Assembly: GCA_037128175.1 (NCBI GenBank)
Contig: JBAXWY010000054.1
Location: forward strand, 1 to 16,252
Direction of reading: 5' to 3'
Origin: Methanothrix sp.
GTDB taxonomy: Archaea; Halobacteriota; Methanosarcinia; Methanotrichales; Methanotrichaceae
DNA: 16,252 nucleotides
The translations under genes were made by a program, and so were the position numbers. Of this stretch, positions 1 to 16,252 are shown one piece after another (positions within the stretch are counted from its first letter, which is position 1; every line of letters starts with the position of its first letter). The notes beneath the pieces were generated by a model. The model did no database searches. It saw only the letters and a program-made list of their open reading frames with translations, and was not told the origin of the DNA.

Positions 1-51
1 TCATCCCCGGCCTAAAGACCGGGGCGTTCTCTACCCCTACACCCCACGCCT
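1..51 (-). mobile_element. Left end of an IS200/IS605-family element (or derived non-autonomous element); the body lies beyond the window start
   Basis: Minus strand reads TTAC|AGGCGTGGGGTGTAGGGGTAGAG-AACG-CCCCGGTC-TTTA-GGCCGGGG-ATGA. This is a TTAC target (52-55), a 4-nt guide, a subterminal hairpin with one G.T pair (5-24), then GGGG-AT, the same layout as the IS608 left end (TTAC target, AAAG guide, CCCC..GGGG-AT hairpin, recalled from the literature). Confidence 0.7.
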
Positions 52-67
52 GTAAGCATTGGCTTGA

Positions 68-1276
68 TCATGGTGTGTCATTTTGGAGAAGGAGATGGTG
101 CATTTTGTCCCTCTTCGTTTCCAGATATCTTCTATTAATATTATTGGGCTCGGTTTCCAGGGGAACGCGCTCTCCGATCTTCAGACCGTAGCCCTCCAGG
201 CCAATCACTTTGCGGGGATTGTTGGTCAGGAGACGAATCTCCTTGATGCCCAGATCGACTAAAATCTGGGCTCCAATGCCGTAATCTCGAAGGTCGGCCG
301 GGTAGCCCAGTTCGTTATTCGCCTCAACCGTATCCGAGCCCTCGTCCTGCAAGGCATAGGCGCGTAGCTTATTGGCCAGACCAATGCCTCTGCCTTCCTG
401 GCGCATGTAAAGCAGGACTCCATTTCCGTTCTCGCTGATGAGGCCGAGGGCTTTGCGAAGCTGCTCGCCGCAATCGCAACGTTGGGAGGAGAAGACATCG
501 CCGGTGAGGCACTCCGAGTGCACCCGGACCAGGGCATCGGGGGCTTTGGGGTCGCCGGAAACGAAGGCTACGTGACACTGTCCGTCCAAAATGGACTCAT
601 AGCCAATGGCCCTAAAGTATCCGTAAACGGTAGGCATGCTCACATCCGAGACCTTGCGGATGAGCTTTTCGCGCTGCATGCGGTAGCTGATGAGGCTCTC
701 GATGGTCACCATTCTAAGGCCGTTTTGCTCTGCGAAGACCTCCAGCTCGGGCAGCCTGGCCATGCTGCCGTCATCATTCATGATCTCACAGATGACGCCC
801 GCTGGATTTAGGCCCGCCAGCCGGGCCAGGTCCACGCAGGCCTCGGTGTGACCGGTGCGCCGCAATACGCCTCCCTCTTTGGCCTGCAAGGGAAAGAGAT
901 GGCCGGGAATGACAATATCGCTTCGCTTCATTTTGGGGTCGATGAGGGTCTGCACCGTCGTGGCTCGATCAAAAGCGGAGATGCCGGTGGTGGTATTGGC
1001 CCGGGCATCCACGGATACTGTAAATGCCGTGCCCATGGACTCCGTATTCTGGGCAGTCATGAGCGGAAGGTCCAGCTCCCGCAGCCGTTCCGCCGTCATG
1101 GGCATGCAAATCAGGCCGCGGGCAAAGCGAGCCATGAAATTGATAGCATCAGGCGTCACCTTTTCCGCGGCCATCATCAGGTCGCCTTCGTTCTCTCGGT
1201 TCTCATCGTCCAATACTATGATGAAGCGGCCTGATTGGATATCTAAAATCGCATCTTCTACAGAGCAAAATGGCAT
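68..1276 (-). CDS. ribBA: Bifunctional 3,4-dihydroxy-2-butanone 4-phosphate synthase / GTP cyclohydrolase II (402 aa)
   Basis: RibB motifs [43 protein letters not shown]. RibA motifs [50 protein letters not shown]. Start moved from the ORF-track 1486 to ATG 1276 ([10 protein letters not shown]), where homology begins and a TATA-like box sits about 26 nt upstream. Confidence 0.95.
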
Positions 1277-1299
1277 ATAAGACGAAGGCACTACTGCCG

Positions 1300-1320
1300 G
1301 ATACTTAAGAGTTTTGTAAC
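1300..1320 (-). promoter_or_regulatory. Putative BRE/TATA promoter of ribBA (likely leaderless mRNA)
   Basis: Minus strand ACAAAACT-CTTAAGTA, with the box at 1302-1309, about 26 nt before ATG 1276. No SD present. Confidence 0.55.
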
Positions 1321-1370
1321 GAGTACAAATTAGCGTTATCCACATCGCTGATCTTAAGTTATGGCCGTTT

Positions 1371-1488
1371 CTTTGTGCGTCCTTTGTGGCTTTGTGCCTT
1401 TGTGCCTTTGTGGTTTGGTTTTTTTTAGGTAGGAATGTGAGATTAGTGCTTACTACAACGCTTACCACAAAGACACAAAGGCACAAAG
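1371..1488. repeat. 8-bp tandem repeat (CTTTGTGN) forming a 25-bp inverted repeat; REP-like element
   Basis: CTTTGTGS four times in tandem at 1382-1413 plus one copy at 1371. 1390-1414 matches the reverse complement of 1464-1488 at 24/25, with a 49-nt spacer. Confidence 0.85.
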
Positions 1489-1510
1489 ACGATCATTGAC
1501 CCAGGTAAAA

Positions 1511-2527
1511 TTACTTCCAAACCCCGGCAAGCTTTGCGTTGCATTGGCTGCAATGCCCATCGATCACGGAATTTCTCAGGATCTGATATCCCAGCCGCTC
1601 GATGAGGACCTCTTTGCAAACCGGGCAGAGGGTATTCTCGCTCTCGCCGGGAATATTGCCGGCGTAGACGTACTTCAAGCCCGCCTTGCGGCCTGCTTCC
1701 TGGCCCAGGCGTTGCGACTCCATCCCTGCTCTTGGAACCTCTTTCATCTTATACATGGGATAGAAGGCGGAGATATGCCAGGGCATATCCGGGCTCACAC
1801 CGGCCAAAAACGTGGCAATATCTGCCAGCACTTCCTCTGAGTCGTTGTAGCCGGGAATGAGGAGGGTTGTAACCTCAACAAAGACGCCTCTCTTCCAGAA
1901 CAGCTCGATGTTGTGCTCGACAGGTGCAAGCTTTGCTCCACAGACCTTGCGGTAGAATTGATCATCACCCTTTAGATCGATGTTTATGCCATCCATTAGG
2001 GGAATGATCTTTTGCGCGGCTTCTTCGCCCATGTAGCCGTTGCTGACGAAGACATTCTTCAGGCCTGCCTCGTGGGCCAATGCCGCCACATCAAAGGCAT
2101 ATTCGAAGAAGATGGTGGGCTCGGAATAAGTGTAGGCTATGGACTGACAGTCGAGAGCACAGGCCTTGGCAACAACGCTCTTTGGGGCAACGAATTCTCC
2201 CGGTATCCGACCGGTTTCTCGAGGCAGTTGAGATATGTCTGCATTCTGGCAGTGCAGGCAATGGAAGTTGCAGCCTACCGTGGCTATGGAATAGGTGAGG
2301 CTGCCCGGCAGAAAATGAAAGAAGGGCTTCTTCTCAATGGGGTCGGCATTGGCCGCTACCAGGTTTCCATATACCAGGGTCATAAGCTTTCCTTCCTGGT
2401 TTTCCCGCACCCCGCAGATACCCCTCTTTCCAGGCCGGATACGGCATTGCTGGTGGCAGAGACTGCACTCTACGTCGCCGTCCAGCTTTTCCCAGAAGAG
2501 GGCCTCTTTAACCGTCTCTGAAGCCAT
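1511..2527 (-). CDS. amrS: AmmeMemoRadiSam-system radical SAM enzyme (PFL-activase-like)
   Basis: N-terminal CxxCxxxC..CGVR, DPIEKKPFFHFLPG, radical SAM motif CNFHCLHCQN, AYTYSEPTIF, YVYAGNIPG, and C-terminal CPVC..CSQC. SD-like GGTGA upstream of ATG 2527 (TTG 2530 is an alternative start). Confidence 0.9.
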   Translation of the reverse strand: MASETVKEALFWEKLDGDVECSLCHQQCRIRPGKRGICGVRENQEGKLMTLVYGNLVAANADPIEKKPFFHFLPGSLTYSIATVGCNFHCLHCQNADISQLPRETGRIPGEFVAPKSVVAKACALDCQSIAYTYSEPTIFFEYAFDVAALAHEAGLKNVFVSNGYMGEEAAQKIIPLMDGINIDLKGDDQFYRKVCGAKLAPVEHNIELFWKRGVFVEVTTLLIPGYNDSEEVLADIATFLAGVSPDMPWHISAFYPMYKMKEVPRAGMESQRLGQEAGRKAGLKYVYAGNIPGESENTLCPVCKEVLIERLGYQILRNSVIDGHCSQCNAKLAGVWK

Positions 2528-2606
2528 CAATATTCACCAGTGTATCCATGGCGCTCATAATATGTATAACAATGGTGTACGAAAGCCTAACTATTAATTT
2601 CTAATT

Positions 2607-2635
2607 AAAAAAATGGCTTTGGGGCAAAATGCCCT
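2607..2635 (-). terminator. Putative terminator of the small PGF-CTERM gene
   Basis: Minus strand GGGCA-TTT-TGCCC hairpin right after the stop, followed by a T7 tract. Confidence 0.55.
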
Positions 2636-3046
2636 TTACTCTCTTCTGCTCAGCACCAGGCTTGCGACTGCTAAGAGACCGGCGATGGCAAAGACGCCCT
2701 CAAATCCGGGCTGCTCCTTGGCAGTTTCTTTAGCATCCTTGGCGGTCTCGGTCGCATTTCCTGCAACAGCTTTGGCCTTGGATTCTACATTCTCGGCAGT
2801 AGCTTTGGCCTTGGATTCTACATTCTCAGCAGTAGCTTTGGCCTTAGATTCTACATTCTCAGCAGTAGCTTTGGCTTCAGATGTTACATTCTCAGCAGTA
2901 GCTTTGGCTTCAGATGTTACATTCTCGGCAGTAGCTTTGGCCTCAGATGCTACATTATCTTTGGCAGCGGTCTCTTCCGCATTTACAACTATAGCAGCTG
3001 TGAGCAACATCATCAGCGCTACAAGCATAATCGACACTATCTTCAT
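2636..3046 (-). CDS. Small cell-surface protein: signal peptide, about 6 copies of an 11-aa repeat, PGF-CTERM archaeosortase (ArtA) signal (136 aa)
   Basis: N-terminus MKIVSIMLVALMMLLTAAIVVNA-EE; repeats TAENV(T/E)S(E/K)AKA; C-terminus QPGFEGVFAIAGLLAVASLVLSRRE; SD GGAGGT 10 nt upstream. Confidence 0.9.
   Translation of the reverse strand: MKIVSIMLVALMMLLTAAIVVNAEETAAKDNVASEAKATAENVTSEAKATAENVTSEAKATAENVESKAKATAENVESKAKATAENVESKAKAVAGNATETAKDAKETAKEQPGFEGVFAIAGLLAVASLVLSRRE
2768..2965. repeat. 33-bp coding tandem repeat, about 6 units
   Basis: Units begin at 2768, 2801, 2834, 2867, 2900 and 2933 (agctttggcYtYRgat..tacattctcRgcagt); the last is degenerate. Confidence 0.95.
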
Positions 3047-3197
3047 TAATGTAAGACCTCCTACCTATTTCGGGATCATCAGTGAAAATACCTCTGATGC
3101 TACTATCATGACTTGGCAAAGCATTGCTTTTGATTTGAATGCAGCCTCAAAGTCCTCCATTCCACCTGGATGATCGAGTAGTCTCGATTCGCAAAAG

Positions 3198-3216
3198 CCT
3201 ATATATCGTTTTTGGT
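3198..3216 (-). promoter_or_regulatory. Putative BRE/TATA promoter of the small PGF-CTERM gene (about 130-nt leader)
   Basis: Minus strand ACCAAAAACGATATATAGG, nearly identical to the S-layer gene promoter candidate. Confidence 0.65.
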
Positions 3217-3279
3217 GGAAATTTGGTCTGAAACCAGGGATAAAATACGGAGAAACGCTAAGAAGAATGAATAAGACAA

Positions 3280-3340
3280 ATGGGAAAAGACTGACTGAAA
3301 AAGGGATAGTTCTGGAGAGCCTAGGCCCTCCAGCTATTTA
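3280..3340 (-). terminator. Terminator hairpin downstream of the S-layer gene
   Basis: Minus strand CTGGAGGGC-CTAG-GCTCTCCAG (3312-3333, one G.U) followed by CCCTTTT and CTTTT pyrimidine tracts. Confidence 0.7.
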
Positions 3341-3347
3341 TTTGATC

Positions 3348-5468
3348 TTACTCTTTTCTGCCAAGTACCAGGAAGGCAACTGCCAGGAGTCCGGTGATTG
3401 CGAAGATGCTCTCGAATCCGGGTGCTGGCTTGGTTGCGGTCTCAGTAGTCTTGTTCTCTGTTGCTGCGGGAGCTGGTTTGGTTTCCTCCTTGGCAACAAC
3501 TGCCTCAGCCTTGGTGGTGTTTGCCTCGGCAACGGCTACTGCCTCGGTGGCTGCGGTCAAGTTCTCCTTGGCGACAGACTCAGCGACAGTGGCGGAAGCA
3601 ACGTTCTCAGTTGCTGTTGGTGTAGTGCCCTCGATGGTTACTGCCTTGTATATGTAGTACCTGAGGGTGTCGTTGTCGGCGGTCTTGATGCCTATGCCGC
3701 TCATCAAGGCGGTATCCTTGTTCTTGCTGAGAGTTATGGCGTTGTCCTTGTTCTCCATGGTGATGGTTCCAGCGTTTGCATCCACGGAGGTGATGGTCAT
3801 TTTATCGTACTGGGTGTCGGCCTTGACATCAGTTGCCTCGCCGGAGATCTGCCAGAGACCATCGACGGTAGCCAGGTTCTGGTCAGCGCCACGGAAGGCG
3901 TTCTTGAAGTGAGCTGCGATTGTTACCAGCTTCTTCTGATCGCCTACAGCGGGATTCTTGTAGTAGTAAGTCTTGTCGGCCATGTTGGCGTCGGTCTTGG
4001 ACGGGGATATGACCTTGCTGTCTACTACGGAGCCATCCTTGGAGAGCTCGAGATAGACCTTGTTGCCGTCGATATCAATGGACTTGATAGCCAGCTCGTA
4101 GCCTTCTTCCATCTTCATGGGTGTGCCGGAGGTGACTGTCTTCTCGCTATCGTCGTCAATAAGGATCTTCTGGAGCTGCTCGCTGGACAGGGAATTCTCG
4201 TCGGTGGACTCTTTGAACAGCAGGTTCTTCTCGGCGTTCTCGTTAGAGACATAGCCTGCGAAGTACCTGTCTGCCAGGAAGCCCATGACATTGAATGCGC
4301 CCCAATCCGCGAACTTGAAAGCCTTGGACTGAGCCGTGGTCATATACTTGACACCATAGGGCGAGTCACCGCTCAGCTTCTTGTCGGTTAAAGTGGTGCT
4401 GAGTGTCTCGGTTCCGATGTCATTCTTAATATCGTAGTAGAATCCGGCAAAGTTCTGTGGATTCCAGGTGTTGTCTGCGGTAGCGACTGCGCCACGAAGC
4501 TCATAAGTTCCGGGCTCAGTTATTTCCTTGTAAATGTAGTATCTCAGTGTATCGTTGTCGGCGGTCTTGATCTTTATGCCGCTCATCAAGGCGGTATCCT
4601 TGTTCTTGCTGAGAGTTATGGCGTTGTCCTTGTTCTCCATGGTGATGGTTCCAGCGTTTGCATCCACGGAGGTGATGGTCATTTTATCGTACTGGGTGTC
4701 GGCCTTGACATCAGTTGCCTCGCCGGAGATCTGCCAGAGACCATCGACGGTAGCCAGGTTCTGGTCAGCGCCACGGAAGGCGTTCTTGAAGTGAGCTGCG
4801 ATTGTTACCAGCTTCTTCTGATCGCCTACAGCGGGATTCTTGTAGTAGTAAGTCTTGTCGGCCATGTTGGCGTCGGTCTTGGACGGGGATATGACCTTGC
4901 TGTCTACAACGGAGCCATCCTTGGAGAGCTCGAGATAGACCTTGTTGCCGTCGATATCAATAGATTTGATAGCCAGCTCGTAGCCTTCTTCCATCTTCAT
5001 GGGTGTGCCGGAGGTGACAGTCTTCTCGCTATCGTCATCAATAAGGATCTTCTGGAGCTGCTCGCTGGAGAGGGAATTCTCATCAGTGGACTCTTTGAAG
5101 AGCAGGTTCTTCTCGGCGTTCTCGTTAGAGACATAGCCTGCGAAGTACCTGTCAGCCAGGAAGCCCATGACATTGAATGCGCCCCAATCCTCGAACTTGA
5201 ACTCCTTGGACTGAGCAGTGGTCTCATACTTGACACCATAGGGCGAGTCGCCGCTCAGCTTCTTATCGGTTAAAGTGGTGCTGAGTGTCTCGGTTCCGAT
5301 GTCATCCTTAATATCGTAATAGAATCCGGCGAAGTTCTGAGAATTCCAGGTGGAATCTGCGGTAGCGACTTGACCGCGTACCTCCACATTCTCGACCGCG
5401 CCGACTACCATCGCTGTTGCTAGTAACAGCATCATCGATGTAAGCGTAATTGCAGCCAATTTCTTCAT
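3348..5468 (-). CDS. Major S-layer protein, Methanosarcinales type (two tandem DUF1608 / S-layer duplication domains, Ala/Thr/Glu-rich stalk, PGF-CTERM; 706 aa)
   Basis: Signal peptide; two copies of WNxQNFAGFYYDI..LIDDDSEKT..EGYELAIKSIDIDGNKVYLEL..IKTADNDTLRYY; stalk with NxT sequons; APGFESIFAITGLLAVAFLVLGRKE; strong SD GGAGGT; strongly biased codon usage. Confidence 0.93.
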   Translation of the reverse strand: MKKLAAITLTSMMLLLATAMVVGAVENVEVRGQVATADSTWNSQNFAGFYYDIKDDIGTETLSTTLTDKKLSGDSPYGVKYETTAQSKEFKFEDWGAFNVMGFLADRYFAGYVSNENAEKNLLFKESTDENSLSSEQLQKILIDDDSEKTVTSGTPMKMEEGYELAIKSIDIDGNKVYLELSKDGSVVDSKVISPSKTDANMADKTYYYKNPAVGDQKKLVTIAAHFKNAFRGADQNLATVDGLWQISGEATDVKADTQYDKMTITSVDANAGTITMENKDNAITLSKNKDTALMSGIKIKTADNDTLRYYIYKEITEPGTYELRGAVATADNTWNPQNFAGFYYDIKNDIGTETLSTTLTDKKLSGDSPYGVKYMTTAQSKAFKFADWGAFNVMGFLADRYFAGYVSNENAEKNLLFKESTDENSLSSEQLQKILIDDDSEKTVTSGTPMKMEEGYELAIKSIDIDGNKVYLELSKDGSVVDSKVISPSKTDANMADKTYYYKNPAVGDQKKLVTIAAHFKNAFRGADQNLATVDGLWQISGEATDVKADTQYDKMTITSVDANAGTITMENKDNAITLSKNKDTALMSGIGIKTADNDTLRYYIYKAVTIEGTTPTATENVASATVAESVAKENLTAATEAVAVAEANTTKAEAVVAKEETKPAPAATENKTTETATKPAPGFESIFAITGLLAVAFLVLGRKE
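3650..5380. repeat. Internal direct duplication with 882-bp (294-aa) period
   Basis: Offset of 882 confirmed at 3697/4579 and 3970/4852. 3693-4025 and 4575-4907 look identical by eye. Confidence 0.95.
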
Positions 5469-5670
5469 TTTTTAACCTCCTATTCACTCTTCACGATCAC
5501 TTTCAGCAGCATACAGTCTGATTATTCTTAAAACTATTGCCTGAATAAAGTCTTCGATCGCCCTGCTACATACCGTGGCACGAGATTTCCTGCGATGCCA
5601 CTGCCGCCTGGCGTCTCTCAGACATGTATATAGCTACGTCACCCTCCTCAAAATCCCATAAGGGATATAG
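5469..5670 (-). ncRNA. Long structured 5' leader of the S-layer mRNA (candidate cis-regulatory RNA)
   Basis: ATCCC-TTAT-GGGAT hairpin. A 9-bp stem GCTATATAC(5634-5626)/GTATGTAGC(5573-5565) encloses GTCT-GAG-AGAC and GTGGCA..TGCCAC hairpins. TCAG..CTGA hairpin before the SD. Confidence 0.5.
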
Positions 5671-5689
5671 GGTAGTGATAGAGTATTTC

Positions 5690-5709
5690 CCTATTATATC
5701 TTTTTTGGT
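5690..5709 (-). promoter_or_regulatory. Putative BRE/TATA promoter of the S-layer gene
   Basis: Minus strand ACCAAAAAAGATATAATAGG, about 220 nt upstream of the ATG. Confidence 0.6.
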
Positions 5710-6095
5710 CCTCTACTAGCAGCTTGGTGCTGTTCTTCCTCTATCTAGAGTTGCAATCGACCAAAGAGCTTTACAAGGCCCTAAGCTGCATTTGTCACTA
5801 CCTATTTAAAGACTATTCTTAGCCGAGACGGCAAGAAGCCTGAAGGAACTAAACAATCGAACCGGCGTCATCCTGGAGAATAGCCCCTCCTTATATCCTG
5901 GCCTGAAAAAATGCCTTTGGCATTATAATCTATATCCAATCAGGCGTCCTAGGACTGGAATTCATTGATTAAATATATTTTATCAAATAATTTTTAACAA
6001 GATTTAGTAGGCGCTAATCTGGTTAATCAAATCAAATTACGATAAAAATAACCAGGGAAAACCGTTTTTGCGAATGGCGTCACAATCCATTAAGC

Positions 6096-7118
6096 ATGAC
6101 AAGAACCTGCCTGATTTATCATCCCATGTGTCTCCAGCACGGGGCGAGTGACCATCCGGAGAGAAGAGAACGCCTCACCGCAATCCTGGACAAAATTCAT
6201 TCGGAAAAGCTTGATGTAGACTTCATCACCCCCAAGCTCGCGACCAAACCCCAGGTTGCAGCCATACACGGACAGAGGTACATCGATCAGGTAAAAGCCA
6301 TCAGCGAGCACGGTGGCGGCCGCCTGGACGTCGATACTATCCTTTCCAAAAACTCCTATGATGCCGCCCTTATGGCCGCAGGCGGCGCATTAACCGCGGT
6401 CGATGCCGTTCTCGGGGAATACGACAATGCATTTGCCCTGGTCCGTCCGCCCGGGCACCACGCATTGCCCAATCGCGGCATGGGATTTTGCATTTTCAAC
6501 AACATAGCCCTCGCCGCGAAGCATGCCCAGGCGCGAGGAAGGGAAAAAGTGCTTATCGTGGATTGGGATGTGCATCACGGCAACGGCACCAATGACGTAT
6601 TCTATTCCGATCCGTCTGTACTATATTTCTCCACCCACCAGTATCCCCACTATCCGGGCACCGGAAGAGCAGATGAGGTAGGAGAGGACGGCGCACAGGG
6701 TTTCACAGTAAATGTGCCTCTGCCGTCAGGAACGGGCGACGCAGGTTATCTCATGGCTTACCGGGAGATCCTGAGGCCCATAGCTTTAGAGTTTAAGCCC
6801 GACATAGTTCTGGTCTCGGCCGGCCAGGACCCGCATAAGGACGATCCTCTGGGCGGCATGCGCCTCACCTCGGCCGGCTTTGGGGCAGTCGCCGGAGTAG
6901 TGAAAGAGATCGCCAATACTTGCTGCCGGGGAAGACTGGCTGCCTCTTTGGAAGGCGGATACAACCTTGGGGCGCAGGCAGAAGCGGTTGTAGCCGAGAT
7001 CAAAGCTTTTGGCGGTGAAGTGCCTCAGTTGGGAGGCACGGATCCAGGCGTTGCCAGGAGAATAGGGGAGGTCAAAAAGATTCAAAGCCGCTACTGGAAC
7101 TGTTTTTCCTCAGCATGA
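6096..7118 (+). CDS. Zn-dependent histone deacetylase-family (class II-like / AcuC / acetylpolyamine amidohydrolase) protein
   Basis: HPERRER, RPPGHHA, GFCIFNN, DWDVHHGNGT, YPGTG, NVPLP, SAGQD..DPLG, LEGGY. Confidence 0.93.
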   Translation: MTRTCLIYHPMCLQHGASDHPERRERLTAILDKIHSEKLDVDFITPKLATKPQVAAIHGQRYIDQVKAISEHGGGRLDVDTILSKNSYDAALMAAGGALTAVDAVLGEYDNAFALVRPPGHHALPNRGMGFCIFNNIALAAKHAQARGREKVLIVDWDVHHGNGTNDVFYSDPSVLYFSTHQYPHYPGTGRADEVGEDGAQGFTVNVPLPSGTGDAGYLMAYREILRPIALEFKPDIVLVSAGQDPHKDDPLGGMRLTSAGFGAVAGVVKEIANTCCRGRLAASLEGGYNLGAQAEAVVAEIKAFGGEVPQLGGTDPGVARRIGEVKKIQSRYWNCFSSA

Positions 7119-7136
7119 GACTCGTCTTAGCTCAGT

Positions 7137-7248
7137 CTAGTACAGCGAGGCTGAAATAAACCAATGTTTTGACTTCGCGGCTTCGCGCCTTCGCGTGAAA
7201 CCGGACCCAGTTGAATCTCATGGCTTTAATTAGGCCCGGCTGTACTAG
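7137..7248. mobile_element. 112-bp MITE-like element, CTAG-bounded, with imperfect 24-bp terminal inverted repeats (IS630-like ends)
   Basis: Left end CTAGTACAGCGAGGCTGAAATAAA versus right-end reverse complement CTAGTACAGCCGGGCCTAATTAAA: 19/24, first 10 perfect. It lies between convergent stop codons and contains CTTCGCGN three times at 7173-7196. Family assignment is tentative. Confidence 0.65.
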
Positions 7249-7250
7249 TC

Positions 7251-8564
7251 TCAGCCGATCCGAAATTTGGCCTGGAAAAAATTAGCCAGGAAGATGCGAA
7301 AGCCTTCATCTTTTATGGAGAGAAGCTCCAGGCCCGCATATATATTGTGCCCATCGCGAATGGACGCGGACAGATGCTTGCCCAGGGAGAGGTTTGCGAT
7401 CTCCTCTGCCAGAAGATCACGAGCAGAAGTATACTGGCGCGCCTCCTCCACAATGACTTTGCCGTTGGCGATGTAGGGGCCGGAGAGGGGCCGCTGGTGG
7501 GCTGCCAGGAAGCGAGATAGGTGATCAGCTTCCCAAGCAGGCGGGCCTATGCGCGGGCAGGCTTTAGAGAGCTGCCAGACCTGCATCTCAAAGAGCATCA
7601 GAGCTCTGTCGCGATAGGTCGAAACGTCGCTGCGCAGCAGGGAAAAGCCGTTTCTTTCTATTAGCGCCTTAATGGAGCCTTCCGCTTTGCGAAGTTGGGG
7701 ATAGAGAACATCTTCCACCACATCGGGCGCAGCAAACTCAAGGAGGATGGGCATCGTCCCCCGCGCATTTATCTGGGCAATTAGCTCTTCATCGGATAGG
7801 GGGTCCAACGATGCTGGGAAGAAGAAATCAAGCTTCGGTTCAGCCAGAAAGGAGCGCGCCGCCCCGGCGAACAGGAGCATCTTGTCTAAAGTTAAAGCGG
7901 CCGCCACATTTCTGCCCGGATCAACCGGATCGACCATGATCAAGGGCTCGCTATGCCTCGCTATGCCGTGCCCTTCCAGGTCCAGGTGCTGGCCGGGGCG
8001 CCAGGCGTTTGCTGCCTGGAGCACGCCGGCAAAAGAGCCGTAACAGAGCACGAGCAGCTCTGCCAGGTAGCCGGAAAAGCCGCCTACCCGGAGCTCCGAG
8101 CCGTAGACATTTACGCCCTTCATGAACTGCTTTAGGAGAAGGACATCGTCCTCCCGACCAATGATTCTGCTGCCCACGTATTTGGTATGAAAGGGAGTAC
8201 GATCCACGGCCGACAAAAGACGGGCGGCATCCTCCACCAGATAGCAGGGAACCAGATCGACCTCAAAGCCATCCATCCGGGCGTGGACGTAAGCATGCTC
8301 CGCATATTTCTCCTCATGATCGGGAGCTATGAGCCTGGCGATCTCCAGGGCCGCTCCCAGATCGCACCCCGGAGGCACCCCTAAAAATATGTCCAGATCA
8401 TGATCTTCGGAAAGCCAGGTGCCTCGGGCGGCAGAGCCCACCAGCATGGCCTTGAGAGAGAGGCCGCGCTCTCTTGCCAGATCCTCTATGCGGGCGATAA
8501 TGGAGGCAGAGGTCTCCATAATTCGCTTCCTGCTGGTGGCACTGGGCCTGACCTTGCCAAGCAC
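7251..8564 (-). CDS. cca: CCA-adding enzyme (archaeal class I tRNA nucleotidyltransferase)
   Basis: LVGSAARGTWLSEDHDLDIF, YAEHAYV, VDLVPCY, SAVDRTPFH, GGFSGYLAELL, DPVDPGRNVAAAL. Start uncertain: GTG 8564 chosen; the ORF-track TTG 8708 lies deep inside thpR. Confidence 0.93.
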   Translation of the reverse strand: MLGKVRPSATSRKRIMETSASIIARIEDLARERGLSLKAMLVGSAARGTWLSEDHDLDIFLGVPPGCDLGAALEIARLIAPDHEEKYAEHAYVHARMDGFEVDLVPCYLVEDAARLLSAVDRTPFHTKYVGSRIIGREDDVLLLKQFMKGVNVYGSELRVGGFSGYLAELLVLCYGSFAGVLQAANAWRPGQHLDLEGHGIARHSEPLIMVDPVDPGRNVAAALTLDKMLLFAGAARSFLAEPKLDFFFPASLDPLSDEELIAQINARGTMPILLEFAAPDVVEDVLYPQLRKAEGSIKALIERNGFSLLRSDVSTYRDRALMLFEMQVWQLSKACPRIGPPAWEADHLSRFLAAHQRPLSGPYIANGKVIVEEARQYTSARDLLAEEIANLSLGKHLSASIRDGHNIYAGLELLSIKDEGFRIFLANFFQAKFRIG

Positions 8565-13989: not shown

Positions 13990-14388
13990 TTATGCTTTTT
14001 CTTCTTTGGGCGCCTTGCCCAGCAGTTCTTCTATGGACTTGGTGCCTGCCTCCACGACTTTGACATTTATCTGGCCAATATCGGGAGAAATATCCCTTCC
14101 ATGAATGCTCATTCTCTTCTTCTTTCCATCGGCTACGGGATGATATCCGGTTCCCTTGGAGAGCAGGATTTTTCTGCGCTTTGTGCCGGGCAGATCTGCC
14201 CGCATGGGAAATCCCTCGCGATCGCTGCCGCCCGTGACCTGTACCGAGTAGCCGGGCATGCCGAGAACATCTCCTTCAACCTTGTCGCCGATATGTTTTC
14301 CCAGAAGCTTGCCGGCTCCTGGATCCTTAAGCTCTACCTGATAGGCCTTACCGCTCTTCGGATCTGAGACTACGACTCTAAAATCCAT
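13990..14388 (-). CDS. rps6e: 30S ribosomal protein S6e
   Basis: FRVVVSDPKSGKAYQ, ITGG-like VTGGSDREGFPMRADLPG, RMSIHG, QINVKV; 132 aa. TATA-like TTTTATAG at 14441-14448. Confidence 0.96.
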   Translation of the reverse strand: MDFRVVVSDPKSGKAYQVELKDPGAGKLLGKHIGDKVEGDVLGMPGYSVQVTGGSDREGFPMRADLPGTKRRKILLSKGTGYHPVADGKKKRMSIHGRDISPDIGQINVKVVEAGTKSIEELLGKAPKEEKA

Positions 14389-14473: not shown

Positions 14474-15466
14474 TCATTTCAGCTCATGGGTCTTCGAGTA
14501 GTCCACCAGAATGGATATGGGCGCCGTCTTGATCTTTACTCCCAGCTCCTCGGCGGCCACCACCCCATTGACTCCGGCATAAAAGGCTATGCCGATCTTG
14601 CCCGCGCCCACCGGGCAGCCAAGTATCGGCTCGGAAGGCTCTCCAATTTTTATGAGCCCGCCCAGGCCCGCGTTTTGCGCCTCATCTAAAAGTGCGCGCA
14701 CCAGCGTTGCCGCCGCGACGGGCACCTCTCTCACATTGGCCAGCACGGTTCCAAAACCGTTGAAGACGGCATCAGCAACACTTGTCACCCTGCGGCCCAT
14801 AAAAACCTTAATGGGATCAAGGGACGAGCCGGCATAGGCAATGAGGTCCGTGAAGTTGAAGGTCTGCCTTTCCCTGACTTCTGCCAGCCCCGCGAAGCTG
14901 GTGAGAACAGGAATTCCCCTTTTCATGAGCATGCCGTCCAGGGTGATGCTGCACAGCGTTGCTATTCCCAAAGCTCCTTTTGGAATCTCAAGATTTGAGA
15001 AGCTTTCTCCTTCATCCAGGATGAGCACGCGACGGCTTATGGTGTAGCCCGCCTCGAATGCTTGTCCCAGTATCTCGAAGACCTCTTCCGCATTTGCTTT
15101 GTCGATGATGCTGGTATTGGCGATTACATCTCCGTTACCGGTCTTTGGATCGAAACTGGTCTTGAACATGTACTCTTCAATCCTGGTATTGACAAAGCCG
15201 ATCCGGTCGTCGACCAGGGCATCGACCAGCTCCCTTGATCCCAGTGGTGTGAGCACCCGGCCGCTGTAGCCTTTCTTCTTGGTGAATCCCAGCTCGTCCA
15301 GGATCTTGAGGTTGTAGCGCACAGCCCTCTCTCCCAGGTCATAGCCGCGACTGCTAAGGCAATCAGAGATCGCTCTGGCACCAATCGGAGTACCTGTGTT
15401 TTCGATTACGCGCAGGATCTCAATTAGCCTTCTCTGGCTCATATGCGCCTTGGTGAGAAGCTTCAT
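14474..15466 (-). CDS. nrpR: NrpR-family nitrogen regulator, NrpRI type (wHTH plus one NRD/DUF128 domain; 330 aa)
   Basis: IEILRVI..PIGARAIS..GYDLGERAVRYNLKILDELGFT..GR.LT.LG..EL, TLCSITLDG, F.DLIAYAGSSLDP, ANVREVP, GVNGVVAAEE. Start moved to ATG 15466, which follows SD GGAGGTG. Confidence 0.9.
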   Translation of the reverse strand: MKLLTKAHMSQRRLIEILRVIENTGTPIGARAISDCLSSRGYDLGERAVRYNLKILDELGFTKKKGYSGRVLTPLGSRELVDALVDDRIGFVNTRIEEYMFKTSFDPKTGNGDVIANTSIIDKANAEEVFEILGQAFEAGYTISRRVLILDEGESFSNLEIPKGALGIATLCSITLDGMLMKRGIPVLTSFAGLAEVRERQTFNFTDLIAYAGSSLDPIKVFMGRRVTSVADAVFNGFGTVLANVREVPVAAATLVRALLDEAQNAGLGGLIKIGEPSEPILGCPVGAGKIGIAFYAGVNGVVAAEELGVKIKTAPISILVDYSKTHELK

Positions 15467-15483
15467 CTTCCTTGCACCTCCGG

Positions 15484-15505
15484 GAAAGGCCATATATATC
15501 TTATG
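15484..15505. promoter_or_regulatory. Symmetric ATATATAT box, candidate promoter for nrpR (-) and possibly tRNA-Gln (+)
   Basis: GAAAGGCC-ATATATAT-CTTATG (box at 15492-15499) in the 84-bp divergent gap. Confidence 0.5.
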
Positions 15506-15550
15506 CGGATAACACTTGCCCGGCATAAGAGCCGGAAAAGATCAAATCAT

Positions 15551-15721: not shown

Positions 15722-15796
15722 GCTCCGGTAGTGTAGCCCGGCCAATCATTTCGGCCTTTCAAGCCGAAGACTCGGGTTCAAATCCCGGCCGGAGCA
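15722..15796 (+). tRNA. tRNA-Glu(TTC), no intron, CCA not encoded
   Basis: Acceptor stem GCTCCGG/CCGGAGC with discriminator A; anticodon arm TCGGC-CTTTCAA-GCCGA; T arm TCGGG-TTCAAAT-CCCGG; T-tracts downstream. Confidence 0.96.
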
Positions 15797-15942
15797 TTTT
15801 ATAGCTAACATTTTTGGTTGATTTTTGCCCCTTGTGAAGATAAGAGTATTTCCGCGCGAAAACCATTCTTGACTAGTTTATGCCGCCGTTTTTGCATTCA
15901 TTAATGAAATAGGTCTTTAGGTATTGATTTTCCCCAAAACTC

Positions 15943-15958
15943 CCGACATATTTATATT
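15943..15958 (+). promoter_or_regulatory. Putative BRE/TATA promoter of the downstream secreted-protein gene
   Basis: CCGACATA-TTTATATT, box at 15951-15958; predicted TSS near 15980. Confidence 0.65.
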
Positions 15959-15975
15959 CCATAAGCCGGAAGGTT

Positions 15976-16185
15976 GGGGTTGTGCCTGAGCAAAATACTC
16001 AAATATGAGCGGAGAAGCATGTGAGTCAGGTACTCCACACGACAAAGCGCCAACGTGGCGGCTTTTGCAGGTTTGTTCCAGGCAAGGGCTGAATAATCTT
16101 TGTCGGCGTGGTGCCAGGGATTTGGGCCACTATTGATGGCTTAGATCCTGAAGCTTTGATGGTAATCTAAGGAGGTGGGAAAGAA
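15976..16185 (+). ncRNA. About 205-nt highly structured 5' leader (candidate cis-regulatory RNA)
   Basis: Three consecutive domains with G.U pairs: 15982-16033, a three-way junction at 16035-16111, and a 12-bp hairpin at 16118-16148. SD GGAGGTG follows at 16171. Confidence 0.6.
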
Positions 16186-16252
16186 ATGAGGAAACTAATA
16201 GCTGTTTTGGTTATTATCGCCATGGCCGTAGTAGCCACTGCCGGTGCAGCAA
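16186..16252 (+). CDS. 5' end of a secreted or surface protein (signal peptide only; truncated by the window edge)
   Basis: SD GGAGGTG 8 nt upstream; MRKLIAVLVIIAMAVVATAGAA is a Sec-type signal peptide with an AxA site. Not in the ORF track. Confidence 0.8.
   Translation, partial: MRKLIAVLVIIAMAVVATAGAA

Follow-up and report, generated by a model that had tools for sequence, protein, structure and literature searches.

The Question Raised by the Locus

What kind of RNA lies ahead of the secreted-protein gene at the end of contig JBAXWY010000054.1 of Methanothrix sp. (assembly GCA_037128175.1), and what could it do for that gene? The window analysed here is the whole of this contig (16,252 bp), one of the 98 contigs of a 2.96-Mb assembly, and the element in question is a leader RNA of about 204 nt, which runs on the + strand from around 15982 to around 16185 and is followed by an ATG at 16186–16188. 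The original prediction was of a riboswitch-like leader with three domains. Structure, conservation, covariation, and gene association show that this is a conserved, folded 5' leader of the first gene in a cluster of genes for secreted surface proteins. A structured and conserved leader is what the prediction got right; the riboswitch is unsupported, neither a ligand nor a clear expression platform having been found and a single structural-gene family lying downstream. The reading that we prefer, and to which we give an even chance, is that the leader would act as a constitutive, cis-acting module for mRNA stability and translation.

Architecture of the Leader

When the sequence is read directly, all the pairings of the original prediction are found exactly where it had placed them. 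The first helix, P1, joins GTGCCTGA (15982–89) to TCAGGTAC (16026–33) in 8 bp that include one G.U pair. Domain 2 is closed by an outer stem, CCAC (16035–38) with GTGG (16108–11), and by a longer one, CGACAAAG (16040–47) with CTTTGTCG (16098–105), and it contains two arms, CGCCA (16048–52) with TGGCG (16056–60) and GCTTTTGC (16061–68) with GCAAGGGC (16082–89). The third element, P3, is a hairpin of 12 bp with three G.U pairs between GGATTTGGGCCA (16118–29) and TGGCTTAGATCC (16137–48), and 21 nt separate its end from the Shine–Dalgarno (SD) sequence GGAGGTG at 16171–77. As had been proposed, the structure extends from the predicted transcription start site (TSS) to a point about 20 nt short of the SD of the secreted-protein gene, and the G.U pairs of P1 and P3 are indeed possible on the + strand only. 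The features of the leader, with those of its promoter and of the start of the gene, are as follows (percentages of cells refer to alignment cells):

15951–15957, + strand: TATA box TTTATAT of the leader promoter, conserved in all aligned orthologues.
15982, + strand: predicted TSS, a G after a pyrimidine and the first base of P1, placed from the TATA spacing.
15982–15989, + strand: 5' strand of P1, GUGCCUGA, partner of 16026–33, with 98% of cells paired (25, 30, and 55 sequences).
15988–16005, + strand: conserved motif GAGCAAAA-N-aCu-N-AaAUA, made up of the last two bases of P1 and the 5' side of the domain 1 loop.
16026–16033, + strand: 3' strand of P1, UCAGGUAC.
16034–16047, + strand: C-rich linker and 5' strands of the domain 2 closing stems, partner of 16098–16111.
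16048–16097, + strand: variable interior of domain 2, in the window a three-way junction of CGCCA/TGGCG and GCUUUUGC/GCAAGGGC with unpaired UGAAUAAU.
16098–16111, + strand: 3' strands of the domain 2 closing stems, CUUUGUCG at 16098–105 and GUGG at 16108–11.
16117–16149, + strand: P3 hairpin of 12–13 bp, three G.U pairs, loop CUAUUGA, with 90–94% of cells paired.
16157–16165, + strand: pre-SD motif UGAUGGUAA (UGAGGGUAA in other genera), its GUA present in at least 90% of 54 leaders.
16171–16181, + strand: SD region GGAGGUGGGAA, invariant in 54/54 leaders and common to the paralogues.
16186–16252, + strand: start codon and first 22 codons, with the signal peptide MRKLIAVLVIIAMAVVATAGAA, of the secreted protein; the open reading frame (ORF) runs past the contig end.

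Helix recovery in folds, together with the comparative support described below, leaves a robust architecture of three modules, namely P1, a domain 2 that is closed by stems but variable inside, and P3. In unconstrained minimum free energy (MFE) folds of 54 leaders, P1 was recovered in 44, P2a and P3 in 39 each, and P2b in 29; the GCUUUUGC arm was present in 22, the inner P1b helix in 11, and the CGCCA arm in 5. The RNAfold comparison with shuffled sequences was marginal for 15976–16185 as a whole (−70.3 kcal/mol, z = −1.99, 6 of 200 shuffles being equally good) and stronger for the leader trimmed to 15982–16168 (z = −3.27). The minus strand of 15976–16185 has a similar z-score (−53.6 kcal/mol, z = −2.33), so the z-score taken alone is marginal and does not pick the strand. 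Among 30 orthologues from the genus, the mean z was −2.79, with 26 of them below −2 (100 shuffles each).

Conservation and Covariation

A BLASTN search with 15900–16190 found the leader in 31 of 36 other Methanothrix genomes, at 95–71% identity; from two further families in the class, 24 genomes were searched, and it was essentially absent from them, the BLASTN result being one 31-nt match (E = 0.005). A covariance model (CM) built from 25 orthologues extended the distribution to 68 of 105 genomes of the family (45 of the 64 of high quality) and to 12 of 16 genera, with no CM match in one genus of 16 genomes. The full leader is present in one copy per genome. The same ORF follows it in all of the 20 extra loci that were fetched, 19 of which came from other genera and one from Methanothrix, and the matches at these loci stop at the ATG of a protein that begins M[RK][RK]E..V..(G)AANYMYEK (one was cut by a contig end after AANY).

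In its own genome, BLASTN of 15800–16252 found that only the SD and signal-peptide part (16169–16252) recurs; there are five such recurrences, all on the contig termed C46, and they correspond to four paralogue starts and a 55-nt contig overlap. The CM gave two matches in this genome, both at the array of paralogues. A dispersed repeat, which had been raised as an alternative, is thereby ruled out, as the full leader has no copies at unrelated loci.

Pairing is maintained to a degree that misaligned partners do not reach. In a MAFFT alignment of 25 orthologues, 84.2% of cells were paired as against 34–47% with slid partners, and the covariation score was 0.172 as against 0.136 in shuffles (reached in 0 of 500). 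Alignments fitted to the CM, which are biased towards the structure of the model, gave higher values: for 30 orthologues of the genus, 86.1% paired (28.6–48.0% when slid), changes on both sides at 27 of 50 pairs (16.9 ± 2.0 when shuffled, 0/500), and a score of 0.247 (0.152 in shuffles); for the family-wide alignment of 55 distinct rows from 12 genera, two rows of which are leaders of a second gene, 86.7% paired, both-side changes at 33 of 50 pairs, and a score of 0.244 (0.123).

Compensatory changes, whose lack would have counted against the fold, are seen in the closing stems of domain 2 and in P3. The outer stem changes from CCAC/GUGG to CCAU/AUGG in 7 of 30 orthologues; the longer stem has both-side changes at 7 of its 8 pairs (for example, C-G to U-A and A-U to G-C); and the closing pair of P3 changes from G.U to U-A in 4 of 30, alongside many one-sided changes of the G.U/A-U and U.G/U-A kinds. 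Pair 3 of P1 is a G.U in 52 of 55 rows, A-U in one, and G-C in two. The interior of domain 2 is another matter. Its length ranges from about 35 to about 140 nt among the orthologues, always with one to three hairpins, and the three-way junction of the window is specific to close relatives; the GCUUUUGC/GCAAGGGC arm has both-side changes at 8 of 8 pairs in the fitted alignment, and the CGCCA/TGGCG arm is paired in just 57–67% of cells. Likewise, the third pair of the inner CTCA/TGAG hairpin of domain 1 is broken in 18 of 25 orthologues. What stands of the predicted three-domain fold is, consequently, a multi-domain structured RNA on the + strand in which P1, the domain 2 closing stems, and P3 have comparative support; the inner CTCA-AATA-TGAG hairpin and the CGCCA/TGGCG junction arm are not conserved.

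In 54 first-gene leaders from 12 genera, the strands of P1, the motif GAGCAAAA-N-aCu-N-AaAUA, the pre-SD GUA, and GGAGGUGGGAA-N-GAAAUG are invariant or at least 90% conserved, and no partner strand was found for the domain 1 loop motif. Taken together, covarying domain 2 closing stems, a covarying P3, and an invariant domain 1 make this a conserved structured RNA.

A separate observation concerns the pre-SD motif UGAUGGUAA/UGAGGGUAA, about 6–10 nt ahead of the SD: in some genera, the 3' end of P1 carries a UACCC with which the GGGUA of this motif could pair.

Promoter and Transcription

Of 54 leaders, 48 have the first T of the TATA box 31 nt ahead of P1, and in 52 this distance is 30–32 nt; the sequence of the spacer varies freely among orthologues. 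Oligo-T runs follow the upstream tRNA-Glu gene. The sequence and this spacing point to 15982 as the probable TSS.

That the leader is co-transcribed with the ORF is shown by Logan contigs assembled from four metatranscriptome runs of four studies, in which single RNA contigs join the leader to the start of the ORF (X1, 15993–16227; X7, 15998–16252; X5, from 15982; X6, from 16012). The X5 contig diverges from the genome exactly ahead of 15982. Missing cover by RNA contigs over 15786–15967 was not counted as evidence, and contig depths were not used to rank expression.

In the X1 and X6 contigs, which come from two unrelated studies, an Illumina adapter stands immediately before 15993, which implies many fragment ends at this position. 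The junction either is an effect of library ends about 11 nt away from the TSS or marks a genuine product of processing; as a weak indication, it suggests that a 5' end lies at 15993 or a little before it, which would agree with a start at 15982. Processing at 15993 was considered and set aside, as the position does not, by eye, fit the motif UNMND/NUNAY given in the available text of PMC5499594.

The Downstream Gene and Its Array

The last 55 nt of the window (16198–16252) are the first 55 nt of C46. The contig ends inside the coding sequence of the signal peptide since this stretch is repeated among tandem paralogues, and, since the assembly broke in a near-identical SD and signal-peptide region, which copy of the array follows the leader is not strictly proven. 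C46 carries, at 1–8500, six tandem copies of the gene, including the partial one at its start; two neighbours are 98.9% identical, and one more copy is on contig C15. Hairpin-plus-T-run terminators lie between the array genes on C46. Four of these genes have a TATA-like box of their own and, at the same spacing, the 5' hairpin GUGCCUGA...YCAGGCGY, the 3' strand of which is lost in one; in this paralogue hairpin, the wobble has shifted to the neighbouring pair (GUGCCUGA/UCAGGCGC). The paralogue leaders are about 88–240 nt long and have a short CUCAC/GUGRG stem in the place of domain 2 and loops that differ from those of the first gene, and the longer ones have an extra P3-like hairpin, GGAUC.../...GAUCC, ahead of the shared SD; second-gene leaders were detected by the CM in many genomes. 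The recurrence of the 5' hairpin and of the SD-proximal hairpin makes both of them traits of the family, and the invariant loop and the large domain 2 are specific to the first gene.

The proteins encoded downstream are Cys-rich, Methanothrix-specific, and 240–282 residues long, and have a signal peptide with a hydrophobic N-terminal helix (residues 2–17), conserved cysteines, and variable loops. Neither Pfam nor NCBIfam has a family for them. There are 2221 homologues, and, among the 120 listed, all names that include an organism are Methanothrix sp. save for one Euryarchaeota metagenome-assembled genome; a search at the level of 50% representatives returned a narrow family of 199 representatives, many of them fragments. 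An AlphaFold2 (AF2) model from a 35-sequence alignment is all-beta, with a predicted local distance difference test score (pLDDT) of 75, as against 32 for single-sequence AF2; it has no fold neighbour in the PDB at E ≤ 0.001 (best template-modelling score, 0.15), a sequence search of the PDB likewise returned nothing, and the ESM Atlas yielded nothing of use.

One family known from the literature resembles this description. Archaeal SH sheath proteins are reported to have a signal peptide, a length of 150–350 residues, and no Ig domains; those of the Methanotrichales form a single cluster of recently duplicated copies near tRNA genes and genes with S-layer domains; their core, of two beta-sheets of six antiparallel strands, is structurally homologous to the Methanospirillum SH protein; and their most transcribed members are the adjacent Mthe_0668 and Mthe_0667 (the relevant parts of PMC11576556). 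The family downstream of the leader has both the signal peptide and a length within this range, and its copies, tandem and in part nearly identical, have tRNA genes and an S-layer-domain gene as neighbours. In locus L050 (genome G123), the orthologue that follows the leader is identical to ABK14458.1, and in L027 it is identical to AEB67868.1, both named "hypothetical"; MspA is ABK14853.1, that is, Mthe_1069, and the accession spacing from it would place ABK14458.1 near Mthe_0668. From the description and this spacing, the downstream cluster fits the published SH cluster, and the proteins are probably sheath proteins.

In genome G006 (L021:1083–1505, minus strand), the first array gene has an orthologue with an open frame of just 141 codons, which diverges after about residue 78, owing to a frameshift that is either real or an assembly error. 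The 90% cluster to which the G027 orthologue belongs also includes a 293-residue protein whose source, a transcriptome assembly, bears the name of the ciliate Urostomides striatus; this protein presumably represents RNA of an associated Methanothrix-like methanogen.

The surroundings of the leader in the window are as follows. Upstream lie the genes for tRNA-Gln and tRNA-Glu; divergent from this pair is a homologue of the NrpR-type nitrogen repressor (14474–15526, minus strand; PF01995 plus HTH_12), and ribosomal protein S6e is encoded at 13990–14388 (minus strand). A 705-residue protein with an S-layer domain (PF07752) and a PGF-CTERM anchor is encoded at 3348–5465 (minus strand), 10 kb from the putative sheath cluster.

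A Proposed Stability and Translation Module

How, then, might the leader serve this gene? In the reading that we prefer, the base-paired 5' end (P1) would shield the mRNA from 5'-end-dependent decay, and the compact folds of domain 2 and P3 would prevent the leader from mispairing with the G-rich SD. The outcome would be a long-lived and efficiently translated message for a protein required in very large amounts, and the invariant loop (GAGCAAAA..ACUCAAAUA) would probably serve to tune expression by contacting a protein or taking part in a tertiary interaction. This reading is favoured because a gene for a bulk structural protein, a predicted paired 5' end, a strong and invariant SD, and a middle part constrained in its fold but not in its sequence match the pattern of the stabilising leaders of bacterial S-layer mRNAs, and because it also fits the long 5' untranslated regions (UTRs) of the Methanosarcinales, which set stability and translation.

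An analogy, in role only, is the slpA gene of Lactobacillus acidophilus and L. crispatus, where a long and stably structured leader likewise precedes the gene for an abundant, secreted, self-assembling envelope protein; its transcript is reported to have an exceptionally long half-life, and the 14–15 min half-lives of S-layer mRNAs have been attributed to the structured long 5' UTR (in the available text of PMC3666127). The two leaders, however, have no homology in sequence or structure, belong to different domains of life with different decay machineries, and differ in that no loop invariant across genera is reported for slpA. Nearer in phylogeny, long 5' UTRs are common in the Methanosarcinales, which are in the same class of archaea: 24% of their 5' UTRs exceed 150 nt, and 5'-terminal structure and exposure of the ribosome-binding site set stability and translation efficiency, as exemplified by the stability of mtaA/mtaC and the processing of rpsO and rps17e in Methanolobus psychrophilus (sections of PMC5378194 and PMC5499594). 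These leaders are not described, in those sections, as family-wide motifs supported by covariation, and they undergo endonucleolytic processing at A/U-rich single-stranded sites, whereas no such site is evident in the Methanothrix leader.

In bacteria, the 5' UTR of E. coli ompA and similar stabilisers place a hairpin at the very 5' end, or no more than a few nucleotides from it, on the mRNA for an abundant envelope protein. With a start at 15982, the Methanothrix leader would share with them a 5'-terminal hairpin on such an mRNA; the ompA type, however, depends on bacterial RNase E and RppH, and archaeal decay (RNase J/aCPSF-type enzymes, aIF2-gamma protection) would have to act in a similar way.

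Several observations weigh against this reading or against parts of its basis. The accessibility of the SD is ordinary (median unpaired probability, 0.37 as against 0.34 elsewhere in the leader), and a loop invariant across 12 genera is more than a plain stabiliser needs. The abundant 5' end could lie within the P1 loop, given the ends at 15993 in two studies, in which case there would be no P1 in the mature RNA. P1 itself is invariant in sequence, with zero covariation, so that its support consists of this invariance and of the G.U/A-U/G-C exchanges. In the MAFFT alignment, the excess of both-side changes is modest (15 of 50 pairs as against 11.0 ± 1.6 when shuffled, 8/500), and the number of further pair types, 41, does not exceed the 43.0 of the shuffled alignments, 436 of 500 of which reach it; the larger excesses are those of the CM-fitted alignments, with their bias. 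Finally, the assignment of the downstream proteins to the SH family rests on a description and on accession arithmetic.

A Possible Factor-Operated Switch

The main rival is a switch under the control of a factor acting in trans. In it, a protein or small RNA (sRNA) on the domain 1 loop would shift the linker CUCCAC (16033–38) between GUGG (16108–11) and the SD GUGGG, and the synthesis of the sheath protein would be coupled to growth or to the state of the envelope. It has this rank because the invariant loop suggests a specific partner and because the linker is able to pair with domain 2 as well as with the SD. Across 12 genera, the loop motif stays invariant and has no pairing partner, and the C-rich linker UCCAC pairs with the SD GUGGG both in the RNAfold MFE structure of the full leader and in the RNAalifold consensus. 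In partition-function folds of 20 sampled leaders, the SD is the main partner of the linker in 6, and most of the other leaders favour domain 2; where CCAC/GUGG has become CCAU/AUGG, the U is still able to wobble-pair with a G of the SD. The 5' UTR of Thermus slpA is also said to be bound by regulatory proteins. However, pairing in silico with a G-rich SD is to be expected of any C-rich segment, species disagree in the predicted balance of the linker, and domain 2 forms earlier in transcription and is far more stable (12 bp versus 5). Moreover, there is no covariation specific to the linker–SD pairing, which is explained by the invariance of the SD. We regard this switch as possible but doubtful.

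A Riboswitch or a DNA Element, Both Unlikely

Could the leader nevertheless be a genuine riboswitch? Domain 1, alone or together with the junction of domain 2, would then be the receptor for a small molecule, for instance a second messenger, and would regulate translation of the surface protein. Like the riboswitches of Rfam 15, it is a cis-acting leader of several helices with conserved unpaired nucleotides near the SD; its stems are supported by covariation, and an alternative pairing could sequester the SD. In bacteria, riboswitches for cyclic di-GMP (c-di-GMP) control pili and adhesins. The class would be a new one, since the leader matches none that is known, as the original prediction had said: a cmscan of the whole window against Rfam 15 returned two tRNAs only and nothing for the leader at the gathering threshold, and, at E ≤ 10, the sole match in 15800–16252 was a chance one to mir-244 (14.3 bits, E = 6.2, minus strand, 15932–15978). 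The distribution, however, is not that of a riboswitch, the usual targets of which are metabolic or transport genes, several of them, whereas here there is one full copy per genome and only ahead of one family of structural genes. No terminator-like oligo-T run follows P3, the expression platform is ambiguous, and the domain 2 junction is unconserved. The downstream gene, from which a clue to the ligand had been hoped for, could be characterised as that of a structural surface protein and suggests no ligand. We consider a riboswitch very unlikely.

Some other known kinds of element were tried and rejected. An upstream ORF of 43 codons from the ATG at 16005 was discarded since this codon is ATA, ATT, or ACA in most orthologues. 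By eye, K-turn and C/D-box readings of domain 1 were dropped, its CUGA being Watson–Crick paired in P1, as was a CsrA-like GGA loop, the GGA of the GC-GGAGAA-GC hairpin being CGA in many orthologues.

Another possibility is that the invariance of the first 52 transcribed bases reflects DNA, either an operator for a transcription factor just downstream of the TATA box or the initially transcribed sequence, and that only domains 2 and 3 act as RNA. Archaeal repressors often bind the region just downstream of the start, and +1 to +52 would be within their reach; domain 1 is conserved as a sequence without both-side changes, and GTGCCTGA and TCAGGTAC do form an imperfect inverted repeat. However, the arms of this repeat are 36 bp apart, the spacer from the TATA box to +1 is free to vary, and the sole mismatch between the arms is a + strand G.U in 52 of 55 rows, the exceptions being A-U and G-C. 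This pattern, along with the movement of the wobble in the paralogues, argues that P1 is an RNA pairing and not a DNA palindrome, and leaves the DNA element with a slim chance. Hardly credible, finally, is an independent sRNA, in which the leader or its 5' part would be released and conserved for a function in trans: such sRNAs from 5' UTRs are reportedly known in Methanosarcina, and depth varies along the leader in some runs, with separate short contigs covering parts of it, but depth sums relatives and paralogues and so is unable to show a separate species, single contigs (X1 and X7) join the leader to the ORF, no oligo-T terminator lies between P3 and the SD, and 15993 misfits UNMND/NUNAY.

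Meaning for Methanothrix and Its Family

The leader represents a new family within a known kind of RNA, the structured mRNA leader, and would be of much greater interest if a switch reading were true. No description of it was found in the literature on Methanothrix riboswitches, on cryo-electron microscopy of the sheath, and on related topics, and the words "promoter" and "operon" do not occur in the available part of the SH-protein paper (PMC11576556). The alignment could seed an Rfam family, and the unit of promoter, leader, and SD is a candidate strong expression cassette for methanogen genetics.

To our knowledge, archaea have so far yielded very few conserved RNA structures that act in cis. 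The Methanothrix leader is a clear-cut case, transcribed, supported by covariation, and present in 12 genera. The gene that it precedes probably exceeds all other envelope genes of Methanothrix in expression, and this genus produces a large share of biogenic methane. How the production of sheath hoops is kept in step with growth is an open question (in the available text of PMC11576556), and the leader offers a concrete handle on this coordination. A bolder proposal, which we put forward with considerable doubt, is that of a new archaeal class of regulatory RNA, in which domain 1 would sense a second messenger or a protein of envelope growth and would toggle the linker between domain 2 and the SD; if true, this toggle would match the synthesis of the sheath protein to cell elongation in the main acetate-using methanogens.

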